A DNA stretch of 64,000 nucleotides from a virus. Taxonomy: Duplodnaviria > Heunggongvirae > Uroviricota > Caudoviricetes. Under the pieces are notes generated by a model. That model was given only the letters and a program-made list of their open reading frames with translations. It ran no database searches and was not told the DNA's origin. Location of the stretch: the IMG/VR virus record IMGVR_UViG_2568526312_000010; one strand, given 5' to 3'. This document shows, piece by piece, positions 1,306 through 64,000 of the stretch. Position numbers and translations under genes: made by a program. Position 1 is the first letter of the stretch; each line of letters starts with the position of its first letter.

Positions 1306-4986
<3,681 letters not shown>

Positions 4987-5012
<26 letters not shown>

Positions 5013-5532
5013 TCAGCAACCCCGGTATCAGTTCATCCAGCGCGGCTGCTTTGTTCATGGCTTTGATGATATCCCGTTTCAGGAAATCAACATGTCGGTT
5101 TTCCAGTTCCGGAAAACGCCGCTGTACTGAGAGAGGGATCCCGTCAAGAATACTGGCAATTTCACCTGCGATCCGTGACAGCACGAAAGTACAGAATGCG
5201 GTTTCCACCACTTCTGCGGAGTCTCTGGCATTCTTCAGCTCCTGGGCGTCAGCCTGCGCACGCGTAAGTCGATGGCGTTCGTACTCAATAGTCCCAGGCT
5301 GGAGATCTGCCTCGCTGGCAGCCCTGTAATCCTCAACCTCTTTACGGAGTTTTTCATTTTCGATATCAGCTTCCCTCTGCGCATACCACTGAATTGCCGT
5401 GGCGGTATCAAATACAGATTCAACGCCCTTACCACCTCCGGAGACGCAAGGGAGCCCCTGAGACTGCCAGCGTTCAATCGTTCGCGGATCCACGTTGAAA
5501 ATTTCGGCAAGTTTCTTTTTATTAACCTTCAT
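4987..5532 (-). CDS. Nu1: terminase small subunit (Nu1-like), N-terminal DNA-binding domain divergent from lambda
   Basis: 181 aa; C-terminal two thirds (EIENEKLR...LSEYIEQS) match recalled lambda Nu1, first ~60 aa differ. Confidence 0.8.
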
Positions 5533-5556
5533 GAAACAGTCTCACAACAAATACAG

Positions 5557-5670
5557 GGTCCGACATGAAAGTGCCCGAAAATGACTTTTTCAGGCGTTTT
5601 CATGTCGGACCTTTACGGATTCGATATTAGAAAAAACAAATAGTTATGTTCGAGAAGTACCGACATGATT
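5557..5670 (-). promoter_or_regulatory. candidate cosB: three CCGACATGA elements, two forming a 14-bp perfect inverted repeat
   Basis: GGTCCGACATGAAA at 5557-5570 and its reverse complement at 5598-5611, third copy at 5660-5668; lies between Nu1 start and cosN. Confidence 0.5.
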
Positions 5671-5707
5671 TTCCCCGGAAAATTTTCATAAATAGCGAAA
5701 ACCCGCG

Positions 5708-5719
5708 AGGTCGCCGCCC
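5708..5719 (-). other. cos: cosN cohesive-end sequence (lambda-type)
   Basis: minus strand reads GGGCGGCGACCTCGCGGGTTTTCGCTATTTATGAAAATTTTCC, recalled lambda left-end sequence, upstream of Nu1. Confidence 0.75.
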
Positions 5720-5918
5720 CGTAACCGGTCGGATCGCCGGAAAGGACCCGCAAAATGATAATAATTATCATCTACATGTCACAACGTGCATCTACGCCAT
5801 CAAACCACGTCAAATAATCAATTATGACGCAGGTATCGTATTAATTGATCTGCATCAAATTAACGTAAAAGCAACTTCAGATAATACAAATCAGCAACAC
5901 TGAATATGGGGCAACATT

Positions 5919-6143
5919 ATGTCATCAAAGAACAGAACCCGCAGAACAACAACCCGCAACATCCGATTTCCAAACCAGATGATTGAACAAATTAACATCG
6001 CTCTTGATCTGAAAGGTTCAGGAAATTTTTCAGCGTGGGTTATTGAAGCCTGCAGAAGAAGATTAATTAATGAAAAATATTCTCAATTTGTACCCAACAA
6101 AGACAAACACGACCAGAGAACCTGTTCAGACAGGTTTACTTAA
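5919..6143 (+). CDS. ribbon-helix-helix-like small DNA-binding protein
   Basis: 74 aa; RNIRFPNQMIEQINIAL...NFSAWVIEACRRRL resembles RHH (Arc/MetJ/CopG) fold; opposite strand to the late genes; diverged homologue at 55560. Confidence 0.45.
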   Translation: MSSKNRTRRTTTRNIRFPNQMIEQINIALDLKGSGNFSAWVIEACRRRLINEKYSQFVPNKDKHDQRTCSDRFT

Positions 6144-6224
6144 ACGACTTATATATGACACAAAAAGCGACCACTAAAGTCGCTTTTTCTTATGGTAACA
6201 GGCAATAACGCTCTCAGATATTTT

Positions 6225-6539
6225 TTAGCATTTTTTTGACCGCGCGTTTCCGGACGTATTCTGTTCTCCTGTCCCTTTATATCGTCGGAATACCCGCCGC
6301 TCTTCAAATCCCATTCCCAACTCAGAATGTAGTCTGTTGACCGCTTGTTTTATTTCGGTCAGGTTCACCGGTGAAACCGGAGTCCGGCGCGCCTTACGCA
6401 AACACTCTGCTCGTTTCTGTGCCGCCACTTTTCTTTTCTGGTCATCACTTAGCTGTACCATCACTTTTGCCCATCGTTCAGCTGCTCTCCGGTACAGTCC
6501 TTTTTTCTCCAGACATTCTGCCAGGTGATCATGTAGCAT
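6225..6539 (-). CDS. PerC-family (Pch-like) transcriptional regulator homologue
   Basis: 104 aa with LEKKGLYRRAAERW and FRRYK motifs recalled from PerC/Pch proteins; sits in the Rz-to-cos moron slot; AT-rich region follows. Confidence 0.5.
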   Translation of the reverse strand: MLHDHLAECLEKKGLYRRAAERWAKVMVQLSDDQKRKVAAQKRAECLRKARRTPVSPVNLTEIKQAVNRLHSELGMGFEERRVFRRYKGTGEQNTSGNARSKKC

Positions 6540-7002
6540 AAGTAACCTCCGTTTATCTACAGACTGCCATCCTGAATTTACCGTCCTTAATAAGACAACA
6601 ATAAAAAACTAATTATATAAAAACAATAAAAATAATATACAAAAAAACTAAACAACAAAGAAAAGCAAATCATATCTGGCATTTTAATTGAAAGAGCAAT
6701 TACCGAACAAAAGACGCTGACTATATACTCAAAACCAAACAACAATTCTGCCAATCAGGTATCATGGCAACACACGGAATTACCATGTTTTTGCCTTCTC
6801 TGCCCATACAATACGGGCATATACTTCATACTCTATTGTAATATTTCTATCCATGTGCCCCACTCCATTTACCTGTAAATAATATTCAAAATATTTATCA
6901 CAGAAATCGTTTTTGGCCATGAACTGAGCACACTATAAAGTCCGGAACTGACTCTTTGTTAAATTACCTTAACGTTACCAGTAACACCTTCGTAACAAAA
7001 CA

Positions 7003-7476
7003 TCACGGTATACACTGGGTACGGATATATTCCTGTGCTCCTTCCAGTTGCTTCTGCATTGCCATCAGCCGTTCTCTGAGGATGAAATAATCCCGTTCAG
7101 CGGCTTCTGCCAGTCGGGGACCGGTTGCATTATCCACGCCGGAGGTGATGGGGGCTTTACGCAAGGAGCCTGGACAGTTGGCGTTGATGCGCAGGCGCTT
7201 ACGACCAGCGGCAACATCAGCACGCAGAGTTTCATTTTCAGCTCTCGCATCAGCTAATTCCCTCGAGTATCTGGCATCAAGTGCAGCAACATCACGCTGG
7301 CGCTGCTGCATATCAGTAATGGTTGCATTTGCCAGCTCCAGCTCACTGACTTTTTTATCGCGCTGCTCTTTGTAGGTTATGGCGTTATCGCGGTAATGAT
7401 TCAGCCCCAGACTAAGCGCACCACAGACCACCAGCAGAATAACGGTAAACGCGGAAAGCATTCGGTTTATGCTCAC
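7003..7476 (-). CDS. Rz: Rz i-spanin
   Basis: 157 aa with N-terminal TM segment and coiled-coil body, last gene of lysis cassette; contains Rz1 in +1 frame. Confidence 0.8.
   Translation of the reverse strand: MSINRMLSAFTVILLVVCGALSLGLNHYRDNAITYKEQRDKKVSELELANATITDMQQRQRDVAALDARYSRELADARAENETLRADVAAGRKRLRINANCPGSLRKAPITSGVDNATGPRLAEAAERDYFILRERLMAMQKQLEGAQEYIRTQCIP
7065..7250 (-). CDS. Rz1: Rz1 o-spanin lipoprotein (embedded in Rz)
   Basis: [15 protein letters not shown] lipobox then proline-rich PPSPPAW; nested inside Rz. Confidence 0.7.
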   Translation of the reverse strand: MRELKMKLCVLMLPLVVSACASTPTVQAPCVKPPSPPAWIMQPVPDWQKPLNGIISSSENG

Positions 7477-7618: not shown

Positions 7619-8188
7619 TCAATCCGCCTTTGTTATTTTCCCTTTGCCTGTATCAGCCAGGACAAAATCAATCAGCATATTCGCTTCATTTACCAGCGTA
7701 CGGATTTTTGATACATGCGCGGCTTTAACCTGTTTCCACTCATTCAGCCCGGTAGCAAACACACTGGCAATGTTTTTATCCCGTTTCATGTCAGCACAAG
7801 CCTGGTTGAGTTCTTCCATCACGCTCATTTTACGGGGATTAACGACAAAACCCTTCGTCCAGTACTCGTAAAGAACATCGTCGCACTCTTCCTGATACCG
7901 GATGACCTTATCGCGGATTTCGGGTTTTACTTTGTTGGGATTAATGGTTTGTAGCCAGCCGGCAAGTTTTCGAAGTGGCATGGACACCATATTGCGTTGT
8001 TTCCCATCCTCAGCAACCATAACGATTTCCGTTATAGTTGACGCAAAACGCTGTCTTAACTTAGCCAACTGTGATTGCCAGGCCAGCCCCATCCCCGCAA
8101 CGACAGGTTTCATGGGAACGTATGGTTCGCCATTATGGTTAACTACATAAAGAGAGTTGCCGTGAAACGGCACGGCCATCATATTCAT
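7619..8188 (-). CDS. antirepressor-like protein (Bro-N / KilA-C-like)
   Basis: 189 aa between endolysin and Rz; N-terminal AVPFHGNSLYVVNHNGEPYVPMKPV resembles Bro-N; has its own 270-bp upstream region. Confidence 0.5.
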   Translation of the reverse strand: MNMMAVPFHGNSLYVVNHNGEPYVPMKPVVAGMGLAWQSQLAKLRQRFASTITEIVMVAEDGKQRNMVSMPLRKLAGWLQTINPNKVKPEIRDKVIRYQEECDDVLYEYWTKGFVVNPRKMSVMEELNQACADMKRDKNIASVFATGLNEWKQVKAAHVSKIRTLVNEANMLIDFVLADTGKGKITKAD

Positions 8189-8458: not shown

Positions 8459-8992
8459 TTATCTGTCGATTCCCCAGCACGCCAGCGCGCTCTCCTGGTC
8501 ACGACGGGATACCTGACCGTAACAGTTATTTGAGCGAATACGGCAGTCCCTGCCACCGTCCTTAATCCACCAGCGAATCGCTTCGCAGGCACCTTTTCGA
8601 TCTCCTGCATTAATCCGTCTGTAAAACGTCGACGGGAAACACTTACCGGGGCCAATGTTGTACGGACAGAATGACGCGATCCCCGCTTTCTGGGGTTCGG
8701 TCAGCGGCACTCTGATGTTTTTCTCCACCCATGCCAGCGCCTTATCACGCTCAATGGCGTTAACCCGGTCGCATTTTTCCTTCGACAGCTTCATGCCAGG
8801 AATAACAGGCTTACCATCCCCCCGGGTGGCTCCACGGCAGATGGTCCAGATACCCGCACCATCACGGTATGCTGTGGTGTGGTTACCTTCCTTTTCATCC
8901 AGAAACTGGTCGAGGATTTCAGGCGCAGACGCCCCTGCACCAATCAGCGCCAGAACGGCAGCCGACAGGCCGTATCTGATTTTTGCGTTCAT
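8459..8992 (-). CDS. R: SAR endolysin (phage lysozyme, T4-lysozyme-like fold)
   Basis: 177 aa; weakly hydrophobic N-terminal segment YGLSAAVLALIGAGA then E..D..T catalytic spacing (EGNHTTAYRDGAGIWTICRG). Confidence 0.85.
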   Translation of the reverse strand: MNAKIRYGLSAAVLALIGAGASAPEILDQFLDEKEGNHTTAYRDGAGIWTICRGATRGDGKPVIPGMKLSKEKCDRVNAIERDKALAWVEKNIRVPLTEPQKAGIASFCPYNIGPGKCFPSTFYRRINAGDRKGACEAIRWWIKDGGRDCRIRSNNCYGQVSRRDQESALACWGIDR

Positions 8993-11897: not shown

Positions 11898-12374
11898 CGA
11901 ATTTCTCCCGTGTACAGGAACAGAGTTAAAAAGCCGGAACCGGAATCAAATCACAGGATGACCATCTGCCAGTGGCTGGTCGTAAAAAAAAGCCGCGCCA
12001 TGCGCAGCCGGAAATAAAGGGATAACGATGATAGTTTGAGAAAAACAGAAACAACACTTTTGTGGCAAAGCATGGTGCCGGGTGCCTCCCGGTGAATTCA
12101 GTATCAGCACCTGAATCCGCGATTATCCCATATACCTGGTTGCTGATCGCCCCTCCGCACAGGGGGATTCACCATGCAGAAGTGTTTTTAATAAACAGCA
12201 AACAAAAAAATCAAGCATTATGCAGGCTGTTTCTTTTTATCACCGGCCACAGCAATACCACAATGCCGCAGACCAGCACCCCATCCGCCAGCACCGACAT
12301 GATTCTGCTGGTGAAATCCACCATCACCACCAGAAACAGCAGGAGTGCAGCCACAGCCAGGCGCAGTTTTACCG

Positions 12375-15462: not shown

Positions 15463-16566
15463 TTACCCGAGCACGCCGGTTGCAAAGGCGTGATCAAGAA
15501 AACGAAAAATTAAATCAACCTGGGAACCATGCTTTTCTTCGAACGCCAGCGGATCCGCATGAAGCTCGTTGTGATGCTCCCGACACAGCGGTAGCGTGAA
15601 AATATCGTGGGATTTTGTTCCCATTCCGCCCTGACCATGACCAATCAGATGATGAGGATCGTCCGCTGGCTTACCACAACACGCACACGGCTGTGTCTTT
15701 ACCCAGCGTGTGTATTTCTCATTTACCCAGCGGCGACGTTTAGGTCGTTTCATGAAGGATTCCGGAGACTCCGGATCAACGGCAATGCTGACCACCGTCT
15801 TTTCCTGTGGTGGGTTCTGTTGCTGGTGGGTGTGAGGCGGTAGCGCAATATTTTTTGTGCGCTGCTTCAGTATGCTGGTGGCGGTCTGTTCTCCCGGTAT
15901 GATGTCGCTTTCACGGTATACGGAGCGGATTTTTTCCGCCGGTAATCCCAGAGAGCGACGCGATACTGCCTCAGGTAATGCGTCCACCACCTGATTGCAG
16001 ACTGCCCACCAGGATAATTCAGCCAGCGATAATTCCCGCTCCTGCGTGCCATTCATTACATGGCGTATGACGTCAATCATCCAGGCTGTCAGATTTTGTT
16101 GAGTAAGTTGCTCAAGTGATTCGGAGGTCTGGTCGCGCAGCTGGTTGTCGCAGTGCCAGCACAACACCATTGCGCCAGCACCGTAACTGTGAATAACGGT
16201 TTCGCTGTGATGATAATCGCCGTGTGGCCACTGGCAGGATTTCACGTGACGTAATAACCAGTCAGACAGTGCACCAGCGCCGCCAGCTGCACGAATCACC
16301 CGCTCATCGCTGAAAAATGGCAGCAGTGATTTATCTTCCGCCAGCGGCTGGCGAACAGCAGGAACCGCTCCAGATGGCAGCGCCCGCATGTTTTTCGGTT
16401 CCGGCTCCACCAGCACCCTGCCGCGATGAAAAACTGGCAATGATTCACGACCGGGCTTAAGGACCACCAGCCCGAGTTCCGGAACCAGAACAGGTCGAAG
16501 TAATACCCGCACATTACCTCCAGACGCGCTGACGGTAGCAGGCATGTGTCCGTGGCAGATGTGCAC
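15463..16566 (-). CDS. DUF968 (YdfU-like) protein with HNH-like Cys/His motif
   Basis: C-terminal CACCGKPADDPHHL...LCREHHNELH; adjacent to rusA/Q as ydfU is in Qin. Confidence 0.65.
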   Translation of the reverse strand: MHICHGHMPATVSASGGNVRVLLRPVLVPELGLVVLKPGRESLPVFHRGRVLVEPEPKNMRALPSGAVPAVRQPLAEDKSLLPFFSDERVIRAAGGAGALSDWLLRHVKSCQWPHGDYHHSETVIHSYGAGAMVLCWHCDNQLRDQTSESLEQLTQQNLTAWMIDVIRHVMNGTQERELSLAELSWWAVCNQVVDALPEAVSRRSLGLPAEKIRSVYRESDIIPGEQTATSILKQRTKNIALPPHTHQQQNPPQEKTVVSIAVDPESPESFMKRPKRRRWVNEKYTRWVKTQPCACCGKPADDPHHLIGHGQGGMGTKSHDIFTLPLCREHHNELHADPLAFEEKHGSQVDLIFRFLDHAFATGVLG

Positions 16567-17371: not shown

Positions 17372-17527
17372 TTACTTCTCAGATTCGTAGTCTACGAAGA
17401 CAGCGACCTCCGTCTGACCGGTTCGGATTCGCACCTCGCAGAGGTCTTTCCTCGTTACCAGTGCCGTCACTATGACGGTTAAACAGATGACGATCAGGGC
17501 GATTAACATCGCCTTTTGCTGCTTCAT
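17372..17527 (-). CDS. hok: Hok/Gef-family membrane toxin (HokD/RelF-like)
   Basis: MKQQKAMLIALIVICLTVIVTALVTRKDLCEVRIRTGQTEVAVF matches recalled Hok family; RBS AAGGAG upstream. Confidence 0.8.
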   Translation of the reverse strand: MKQQKAMLIALIVICLTVIVTALVTRKDLCEVRIRTGQTEVAVFVDYESEK

Positions 17528-17817
17528 AGCCTGCTTCTCCTTGCCTTTCGGCACGTAAGAGGCTAACCTACATGTGTTCAGCATGGATTGAGCCTCAGAT
17601 TAATGTTAAGCGTCTTGCAGGACGCGTAATGTTAACTGGGGCTTTTCTCTATCTGCCGTTGGTGTTCATGCCCGAGGCAGATAGCCTCAAGCACCCGCAG
17701 CAATTCTACTTAACTATCCTTTTCCCGCAAACCGTTTTTATCCCCAGCGGCAAATCGAATACACCACCAGCGCCACCGCCATCGCAATTCCTACCGTTGT
17801 GAATGCTTCAGGCCAGG

Positions 17818-24904: not shown

Positions 24905-24962
24905 TTTCTGGTGACGTTTGGCGGTATCAGTTTTACTCCGTGGCTGCTCTGCCGCCCTTTTT
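24905..24962 (+). ncRNA. dicF: DicF small RNA
   Basis: tttctggtgacgtttggcggtatcagttttactccgtggctgctctgccgcccttttt matches recalled DicF with one mismatch; terminator hairpin plus U-tract; upstream of dicB. Confidence 0.8.
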
Positions 24963-55559: not shown

Positions 55560-55787
55560 ATGTCATCGAAAAACCGGCCCCGCAGAACAACAACCCGCAA
55601 CATCCGATTTCCAAACCAGATGATTGAACAAATTAACATCGCTCTTGACCAGAAAGGTTCAGAAAATTTTTCTGCGTGGGTCATTGAATCTTGCCGCCGG
55701 GAGCTGGCAGCAGACATAAAATATGCCCGTCAGTTGACTATAAAAAAGAATGATACACAGTATGCTCTGCGATGGCTGTTCATATAA
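55560..55787 (+). CDS. ribbon-helix-helix-like small protein (paralogue of 5919..6143)
   Basis: first 50 aa about 90 percent identical to the prophage 1 copy, C-terminus different. Confidence 0.45.
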   Translation: MSSKNRPRRTTTRNIRFPNQMIEQINIALDQKGSENFSAWVIESCRRELAADIKYARQLTIKKNDTQYALRWLFI

Positions 55788-61049: not shown

Positions 61050-61527
61050 CGAATTTCTCCCGTGTACAGGAACAGAGTTAAAAAGCCGGAACCGGAATCA
61101 AATCACAGGATGACCATCTGCCAGTGGCTGGTCGTAAAAAAAAGGCCGCGCCATGCGCAGCCGGAAATAAAGGGATAACGATGATAGTTTGAGAAAAACA
61201 GAAATAACACTTTTGTGGCAAAGCATGGTGCCGGGTGCCTCCCGGTGAATTCAGTACCAGCACCTGAATCCGCGATTATCCCATATACCTTCTTGCTGAT
61301 CGCCCCTCCGCACAGGGGGATTCACCATGCAGAAGTGTTTTTAATAAACAGCAAACAAAAAAATCAAGCATTATGCAGGCTGTTTCTTTTTATCACCGGC
61401 CACAGCAATACCACAATGCCGCAGACCAGCACCCCATCCGCCAGCACCGACATGATTCTGCTGGTGAAATCCACCATCACCACCAGAAACAGCAGGAGTG
61501 CAGCCACAGTCAGGCGCAGTTTTACCG

Positions 61528-63649: not shown

Positions 63650-64000
63650 TTACCCGAGCACGCCGGTTGCAAAGGCGTGATCAAGAAAACGAAAAATTAA
63701 ATCAACCTGGGAACCATGCTTTTCTTCGAACGCCAGCGGATCCGCATGAAGCTCGTTGTGATGCTCCCGACACAGCGGTAGCGTGAAAATATCGTGGGAT
63801 TTTGTTCCCATTCCGCCCTGACCATGACCAATCAGATGATGAGGATCGTCCGCTGGCTTACCACAACACGCACACGGCTGTGTCTTTACCCAGCGTGTGT
63901 ATTTCTCATTTACCCAGCGGCGACGTTTAGGTCGTTTCATGAAGGATTCCGGAGACTCCGGATCAACGGCAATGCTGACCACCGTCTTTTCCTGTGGTGG
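63650..64000 (-). CDS. DUF968 (YdfU-like) protein, 5' end beyond window
   Basis: C-terminal 110 aa identical to 15463..16566 copy. Confidence 0.65.
   Translation of the reverse strand, partial: PPQEKTVVSIAVDPESPESFMKRPKRRRWVNEKYTRWVKTQPCACCGKPADDPHHLIGHGQGGMGTKSHDIFTLPLCREHHNELHADPLAFEEKHGSQVDLIFRFLDHAFATGVLG

Follow-up and report, generated by a model that had tools for sequence, protein, structure and literature searches.

The prophage gene pchB and a convergent YlcI/YnfO-family gene next to cos at the right end of an Sp11-type prophage of Escherichia coli O157:H7

Enterohaemorrhagic Escherichia coli (EHEC) O157:H7 carries five prophage-borne homologues of perC, and only those of group 1 (pchA, pchB and pchC) are needed for ler and the LEE (locus of enterocyte effacement) to be fully expressed and for adherence (PMC6265319, PMC5931665, PMC4456613). 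Among the five Pch proteins, each supplied on a plasmid in K-12, it was PchB that raised ler::lacZ activity most, to 12,513 versus 1,577 Miller units (PMC5931665). Here, we describe a locus of this kind in a 64,000-nucleotide stretch of viral DNA (Caudoviricetes; IMG/VR record IMGVR_UViG_2568526312_000010), which we call the window. It comprises a 104-codon gene on the minus strand and a 74-codon neighbour on the plus strand, together spanning positions 5919 to 6539. The explanation that best covers the whole, and that we hold with high confidence, is that the 104-codon gene is pchB in an Sp11-type prophage locus, coding for a LEE activator and preceded by an AT-rich regulatory tract.

The way in which Pch proteins act has been studied in some depth. 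Fukui et al. reported that Pch activates LEE1 only when its promoter is silenced by H-NS/StpA/Hha/YdgT, that PchA is bound to the LEE1 region with or without H-NS, and that Pch expression lowers H-NS occupancy at LEE1 in living cells as well as in a system reconstituted in vitro (PMC4764244). PerC of enteropathogenic E. coli (EPEC) likewise activates LEE1, as PchB does, and LEE expression in EPEC depends on PerC under some conditions only (PMC4764244). Upstream of the regulators, LrhA controls pchA and pchB differentially, and Lrp and butyrate also intervene (PMC4456613); group 1 pch genes are expressed in lysogens and their transcripts show a late rise after SOS induction (PMC5931665). At the translational level, two reports describe how the small RNA (sRNA) DicF frees the sequestered ribosome-binding site of pchA and thus allows its translation (PMC7769764, PMC7873438).

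How does the window compare? A first-pass annotation, made from the letters alone, had placed an open reading frame (ORF) of 104 amino acids (aa) and another of 74 aa between Rz and cos and had called the first one PerC-like from its motifs. Both ORFs are present, at 6225-6539 (minus strand) and 5919-6143 (plus strand), and the PerC call was borne out along the length of the protein. It matches the Pfam PerC family (PF06069) with 148.8 bits against a gathering score of 22.6 (E=5.4e-44), residues 1-89 falling on model positions 1-89 of 90; this value, together with the one obtained for the 74-aa protein against DUF3950 (E=1.8e-18), excludes chance for both ORFs. The motifs in question, LEKKGLYRRAAERW and FRRYK, lie at residues 10-23 and 84-88. 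A tblastn search against plasmids found perC of the EPEC E2348/69 plasmid pMAR2, where it is situated behind perA and perB, with 47.1% identity (E=1e-17). In a pairwise alignment with EPEC PerC (49% identity), LEKKGLYRRAAERW stands opposite LEEKGFYRRAADRW and FRRYK opposite FRNYK, and the PerC domain is conserved. The likeness between PchB and EPEC PerC thus consists of a common Pfam family, 47-49% identity over residues 2-88 and the kept LE.KG.YRRAA.RW and FR.YK motifs, whereas EPEC PerC differs in being plasmid-borne, in its operon behind the AraC-type PerA and in its length, 89 aa without the basic 15-aa tail. A homologue search yielded only 16 close relatives of PchB, and the breadth of the family was therefore taken from the plasmid tblastn; elsewhere in the window, tblastn detected no second PerC-like sequence.

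The DNA comparison tells which member of the family is present. Megablast of positions 5560-7010 against complete E. coli genomes returned hundreds of 100% matches in O157:H7 strains, where RefSeq names the two products 'PerC family transcriptional regulator' and 'YlcI/YnfO family protein'. Positions 5533-7010 (1478 bp) are 100% identical to prophage Sp11 of strain Sakai around ECs_2182, annotated as pchB, and the remaining window follows the Sakai Sp11-Sp12 tandem. The gene and 1.1 kb around it are the same in DNA sequence, as are the position between Rz and cos and the neighbouring prophage; no difference from the Sakai Sp11 pchB locus is detectable and the window holds another copy of it. 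We conclude that this part of the window forms the right-hand end of a lambdoid prophage of the Sp11 type from E. coli O157:H7. Compared with Sakai pchC (prophage Sp14), the coding sequence differs only at positions 172 and 183, both of which belong to the set of three (16, 172 and 183) by which pchA, pchB and pchC have been told apart (PMC5931665). We found nothing to contradict the identification as pchB.

The fact that only group 1 of the five pch genes of O157:H7 strongly activates ler (PMC6265319, PMC5931665) speaks for a different idea, namely that the ORF is a PerC paralogue of an inactive kind (group 2 or 3, like PchD/PchE) or a silent remnant without control over the LEE. We find this hardly credible, given that the DNA is identical to Sakai pchB and differs from the pchC coding sequence at two positions only, that the ORF is intact and preceded by a GGAGG Shine-Dalgarno sequence at -11 to -7, and that PchB was the strongest ler activator in the published test (PMC5931665). 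As far as sequence identity can decide, an inactive paralogue is already refuted here and the gene is pchB.

The prophage setting of pchB differs between O157:H7 strains. In strain TR01 (NZ_CP033605.1, 1679541-1707373), an identical pch-ylcI module is found in an ompW-adjacent prophage that carries paa and has no second prophage downstream, which shows that the module occupies different prophage backgrounds or positions among O157:H7 strains. We considered a TR01-type layout for the window and rejected it, since the TR01 module lies near ompW without a second prophage and the window matches the Sakai Sp11-Sp12 tandem. In a single database protein of 138 aa from an E. coli contig (P0225), residues 1-43 of a small terminase of the Sp12 type run into PchABC, which begins there at its residue 10; this is apparently a deletion fusion of adjacent prophage modules.

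In the direction of the phage, the endolysin gene is followed by an antirepressor-like gene, Rz with Rz1 inside it, the two ORFs, and the genes for the small and large terminase subunits. The gene map of the window places the two ORFs between Rz/Rz1 and cosN, upstream of Nu1, as had been claimed: Rz lies on one side and cosN on the other. The relevant features are the following.

8459-8992, minus strand: endolysin gene.
7619-8188, minus strand: P22-AR/ORF11CD3 antirepressor-like gene.
7003-7476, minus strand: Rz.
7065-7250, minus strand: Rz1, nested in Rz.
6540-7002, minus strand: AT-rich tract from the Rz stop to the pchB start, 463 bp.
6780-6920, minus strand: doubtful 46-codon ORF within the AT-rich tract, matching phrog_2157.
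6225-6539, minus strand: pchB, 104-aa PerC-family (group 1 Pch) transcriptional regulator, by Pfam PF06069 and identity to Sakai.
6162-6188, both strands: terminator-like hairpin between the convergent genes, by RNA folding.
5919-6143, plus strand: YlcI/YnfO-family gene (DUF3950, Pfam PF13132), 74 aa.
5708-5719, minus strand: cosN cohesive-end sequence GGGCGGCGACCT, an exact match to that of lambda.
5557-5611, strand not assigned: inverted repeat of 25 nt in the interval between cosN and Nu1, by repeat search.
4987-5532, minus strand: Nu1 (terminase small subunit).
3087-5012, minus strand: terminase large subunit gene.
55560-55787, plus strand: second gene of the DUF3950 family, flanked by an HNH endonuclease gene and Rz of prophage 2 (Sp12-like; Pfam PF13132, E=3.1e-17).
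24906-24957, plus strand: DicF sRNA gene (Rfam RF00039).

The cohesive-end sequence GGGCGGCGACCT has one exact match in the whole window, with 0.01 expected by chance. In phage direction, the arrangement reads Rz/Rz1, the presumed regulatory tract rich in AT, pchB, the hairpin common to both genes, the convergent ylcI/ynfO-family gene, cosN and Nu1. The two genes had been described as divergently oriented; they are in fact convergent, tail to tail, with stop codons 81 bp apart. Similarly, an AT-rich tract of about 460 bp does exist, and it follows the PerC-family gene in window coordinates only; read along the gene's own strand, it is upstream.

The AT-rich tract has 33.0% GC, compared with 52.3% for the whole window, and reaches a minimum of 18% at 6600-6699. 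When the locus is compared with the Sakai pchC locus, identity amounts to 88% in the tract, 99.4% in the coding sequence and 100% in the spacer that separates the two genes; most of the differences in the tract are packed in 6583-6713, that is, 45-175 nt upstream of the pchB start codon. No part of the module has diverged more from pchC than the tract. It presumably carries the promoter and leader of pchB, and its composition makes it a likely target of H-NS. Because the largest difference between pchB and pchC is located there, paralogue-specific regulation would be expected to act through this tract, and its divergence would fit such a regulation. The tract also contains a 46-codon ORF with a full-length match to phrog_2157 (E=1.1e-37). 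Despite this match we doubt that it is a gene, because comparison with the pchC locus gives 1 synonymous and 7 non-synonymous changes and because it lacks a Shine-Dalgarno sequence; RefSeq has no annotation for it, and it is probably non-genic as judged from these substitutions.

Downstream of pchB, the hairpin at 6162-6188 has the form A5-GCGAC-loop-GTCGC-T5, a 10-bp stem flanked by U runs. RNA folding of its surroundings (61-81 nt) gave -12.3 kcal/mol for the plus strand and -17.3 kcal/mol for the minus strand. From its sequence, the element looks like a terminator on both strands that would be common to the two convergent genes, although it is not among the sites listed by a consensus terminator scan.

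The first-pass annotation regarded the interval between Rz and cos as a moron slot holding both genes. This view stands for pchB, which has an AT-rich flank, a hairpin after the gene and is absent from related phages at the same site: lambda has bor in its place, prophage 2 lacks it, and it occurs in 4 of 50,697 phage records. The pchB gene is a moron inserted at the position of lambda's bor. The view does not extend to the YlcI-like gene, because lambda has a homologue of it at the same distance from cos.

With regard to function, activation of LEE1 and ler through relief of H-NS silencing has been published for PchA, PchB and PchC, and we carry it over to the gene in the window on the strength of sequence identity. 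In the published picture, PchB binds the LEE1 promoter region and lowers the occupancy of H-NS/StpA; ler is then de-repressed and, via Ler, the entire type III secretion island. The effects of pchA, pchB and pchC, the paralogues of group 1, are additive. Control has been described at two levels, transcription (LrhA, Lrp/butyrate and prophage/SOS induction) and, for pchA, translation (DicF). The prophage that carries pchB also carries a dicF gene at 24906-24957 (plus strand), detected by Rfam RF00039 with 75 bits against a gathering score of 48.

Some results weigh against this picture of pchB and its regulatory tract. A scan with the promoter consensus found no sigma-70-like site in the AT-rich tract, so that a promoter belonging to pchB was not located there, and our literature search gave no usable account of a pch promoter. 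The supplement of the published chromatin immunoprecipitation (ChIP) study (PMC4764244) holds no table covering the locus, and the binding of H-NS to the tract is proposed from base composition. Finally, the DicF mechanism was published for pchA, and the energy of a DicF-pchB duplex is no better than that of shuffled controls: RNAduplex gave -48.9 kcal/mol over nearly all of DicF, but shuffled DicF gave -42.0 +/- 3.3 kcal/mol, with values down to -54, and the mean elsewhere in the window was -44.8 kcal/mol. We take the pairing as an artefact of folding duplexes without constraints and make no claim from it.

A question of wider scope is how Pch proteins counter H-NS. Eight of the nine PerC-family proteins examined match the NCBIfam model NF033650 of the ANR (AraC negative regulator) family in register, with E-values from 5.3e-5 to 0.046, and it is the best or only match for seven of these eight. 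PchB itself matches through residues 5-52 with E=0.046 and 13.6 bits, where the curated cut-off is 32 bits; the other PerC-family proteins score 15.7-23.0 bits, compared with 56.9 bits for a genuine ANR protein, Rnr. The matching proteins (loci L006 and L013-L018) include EPEC PerC, a Pch relative with 78% identity and five plasmid-encoded PerC-family proteins 31-42% identical to PchB, all with E-values between 5.3e-5 and 9.8e-3. As all scores fall below the 32-bit cut-off, we do not assign PchB to the ANR family and note the resemblance only. Within their first ~50 residues, PerC-family proteins have the pattern E..G.Y..A...W...R...A..RAE.C in common with ANR proteins (Aar of enteroaggregative E. 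coli, Rnr of EPEC), and both families act on virulence genes controlled by H-NS. They differ in that PerC proteins have an extra C-terminal half, in their opposite effects on the LEE, which ANR represses and Pch activates, and in the mode of action described, through protein contacts for ANR and through DNA binding for Pch. The ANR literature that we looked at contains no mention of PerC.

ANR proteins bind H-NS and Ler directly (PMC10148876, PMC5570504). Together with the in-register matches of eight of the nine proteins and a BLASTP alignment between PerC and EPEC Rnr (E=0.002), this gives some ground for thinking that Pch might act mainly by protein contact with H-NS-family proteins, as Aar and Rnr do, instead of by competitive DNA binding. 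We regard such a mode as unlikely: all scores (13.6-23 bits) are under the curated cut-off, hhalign against the single Rnr sequence returned a probability of 1.7%, PchA was found on LEE1 DNA independently of H-NS/StpA by ChIP and H-NS binding to gadE was unaffected (PMC4764244), and the effects of the two families on the LEE are opposite. The proposal that the N-terminal half of PerC/Pch, containing LEKKGLYRRAAERW, is remotely related to the ANR domain found in Aar and Rnr is put forward tentatively and, taken with the weaker lead on DUF3950 described below, has in our estimation a small chance of being right.

What is the 74-codon neighbour? Its product matches Pfam DUF3950 with 66.6 bits against a cut-off of 25, the NCBIfam model NF041551 with 34.6 bits against 30 and phrog_949 with E=1.7e-31. 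We found no published function and no solved structure for the YlcI/YnfO family, which is named but uncharacterised, and searches of PDB sequences with PchB and with the YlcI-like protein gave nothing meaningful. A collection of 1.84 billion proteins contains 106 cluster representatives of this small family, whose members have almost invariant first 49 residues followed by tails that are free in sequence and length. YlcI (prophage DLP12) and YnfO (prophage Qin) of K-12 and the lambda ORF conform to this description, sharing the N-terminal domain with the 74-aa protein and differing from it in the length and sequence of the C-terminal tail. The YlcI-like protein also has weak tblastn similarity to 15691-15867 and 63878-64000, both on the minus strand (E=0.004 and 0.014), which correspond to paralogous DUF968 genes of the two prophages.

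The lambda homologue is an intact ORF of 64 codons (NC_001416, 48109-48303, complement) without annotation in the reference record. Some 200 bp separate it from the right end, and both this distance and its orientation agree with the Sp11-type prophage, where the 74-codon gene starts ~200 bp from cosN. Since lambda has a homologue at the same place, the YlcI-like gene belongs to the conserved lambdoid backbone. Prophage 2 keeps only a diverged copy, as had been claimed: the gene at 55560-55787, ECs_2255 in the Sakai annotation, encodes a protein 82% identical over residues 1-55 with an unrelated tail, and no PerC gene accompanies it. The order in this prophage (TerL, TerS, HNH DNase, ECs_2255, Rz) is the same as in Sakai Sp12; its packaging module is different (HNH, TerS, TerL), yet the DUF3950 gene again lies between lysis and packaging genes. 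In K-12, ylcI and ynfO presumably sit beside the Nu1 homologues nohD and nohA.

This recurrent position raises the matter of whether the conservation concerns a protein at all. The distance of ~200 bp from cosN both in the window prophage and in lambda, a 69-nt stretch identical in the two window copies, the absence of a published function for YlcI/YnfO and the lack of annotation at this position in the lambda reference and the current Sakai record would all suit a cis-acting DNA element near cos, involved in packaging termination or similar, in which case the 74-codon ORF would not be a gene. We judge this improbable. The two window copies are homologous from exactly the ATG to about codon 49, their flanks being unrelated, and codon changes between them are 9 synonymous versus 6 non-synonymous; these observations argue that the 74-aa ORF is a real coding module, as far as sequence can tell. 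Moreover, diverged homologues (31-59% identity) retain the same residues, copies exist in satellites beside integrase and alpA genes, and the predicted model has a confident two-helix core. We also consider it very improbable that the YlcI-like protein serves as antitoxin in a toxin-antitoxin system.

The 74-aa protein had been labelled ribbon-helix-helix (RHH)-like, and every test that we ran is compatible with the label, with weak support from the predicted topology and from the top PDB hit. In an AlphaFold2 monomer, residues 1-18 are extended and helices span 19-32 and 34-55, with a predicted local distance difference test score of ~88 in the core and 69.4 on average; the strand can form only in a dimer. 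A PDB profile search placed the RHH protein CdbA on top, aligned in register with a weak E-value of 0.41, and N-x-R-x-P and G...S positions align with Arc and Mnt. On the other side, no Pfam RHH family appeared for the YlcI-like protein at E<=1, nor for any of 28 diverse homologues at E<=0.01, hhalign against Arc gave a probability of 2%, BLASTP of YlcI against Arc gave no alignment, and Foldseek found no match for the YlcI model in the PDB. The comparison with RHH repressors of the Arc/Mnt/CopG type hence comes without a significant sequence match or a Pfam RHH family match. The YlcI-like protein is a probable RHH DNA-binding protein, which would function as a dimer; that it is a small dimeric DNA-binding protein we favour with moderate confidence.

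Further context for DUF3950 comes from other elements. Two distant DUF3950 proteins carry at their C-terminus the N-terminal domain of a small terminase (Pfam Terminase_2, E=1.6e-11). Their genes lie in integrase-alpA-...-primase elements (L007, 4001-4390; L010/L011/L012, 5001-5363 and 4590-4772), divergent from alpA and int, and in one case beside a second DUF3950 gene; the element in L010 and L011 is inside an Sp12-like prophage, adjoining its terminase genes. By gene content these elements look like phage satellites, and a recent survey lists YlcI/YnfO genes in capsid-forming phage-inducible chromosomal islands (PMC13612085). This context hints at a regulatory or packaging-linked role for DUF3950 and proves nothing. 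Considering the unannotated lambda copy and the small-terminase fusions in satellites, the cos-adjacent DUF3950 protein may be a DNA-binding factor tied to packaging or to satellite control, a lead weaker than the resemblance between PerC and ANR.

The interval that separates cosN from the start of Nu1 holds, besides the 25-nt inverted repeat at 5557-5611, a third CCGACATGA copy at 5660-5668. From their position, the inverted repeat and the CCGACATGA copies are candidate binding repeats for the terminase small subunit (cosB-like). The same inverted repeat caused spurious microRNA matches on both strands at 5554-5616, which we discarded, and an Rfam scan of 5400-7200 at E<=1 returned chance eukaryotic families only. 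Elsewhere in the window, Rfam hits at gathering level comprise the STnc100 sRNA in both prophages (12034-12206 and 61187-61359, both minus strand), the sok antitoxin RNA (17522-17696, minus strand) and the ALIL frameshift pseudoknot of an IS3-family element (39799-39915, plus strand).

Documentation of pchB, of where it lies in the prophage and of how it controls the LEE goes back to 2004, and RefSeq carries the annotation; all this is already known, and the window adds nothing new on pchB itself. The gene ranks among the most thoroughly studied regulators of EHEC virulence. Together with pchA and pchC, pchB acts from the prophage as the master switch of the LEE type III secretion island and of EHEC O157:H7 adherence, a textbook case of a phage moron that rewires virulence regulation in its host. 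The comparison adds to this that the AT-rich tract upstream of the gene is the fast-diverging part of the module, consistent with the paralogue-specific regulation reported for pchA and pchB. It also portrays the neighbouring DUF3950 gene as part of the lambdoid backbone, with an unannotated homologue in lambda itself, an RHH-like predicted fold and relatives fused to a terminase small-subunit domain in phage satellites. Lastly, the similarity between PerC and ANR proteins is consistent, although sub-threshold, and if real it bears on how Pch counters H-NS: Pch would relieve silencing partly by touching H-NS-family proteins and not only by competing for DNA, and the LEE activators PerC/Pch and the ANR repressors would share one ancestral module.

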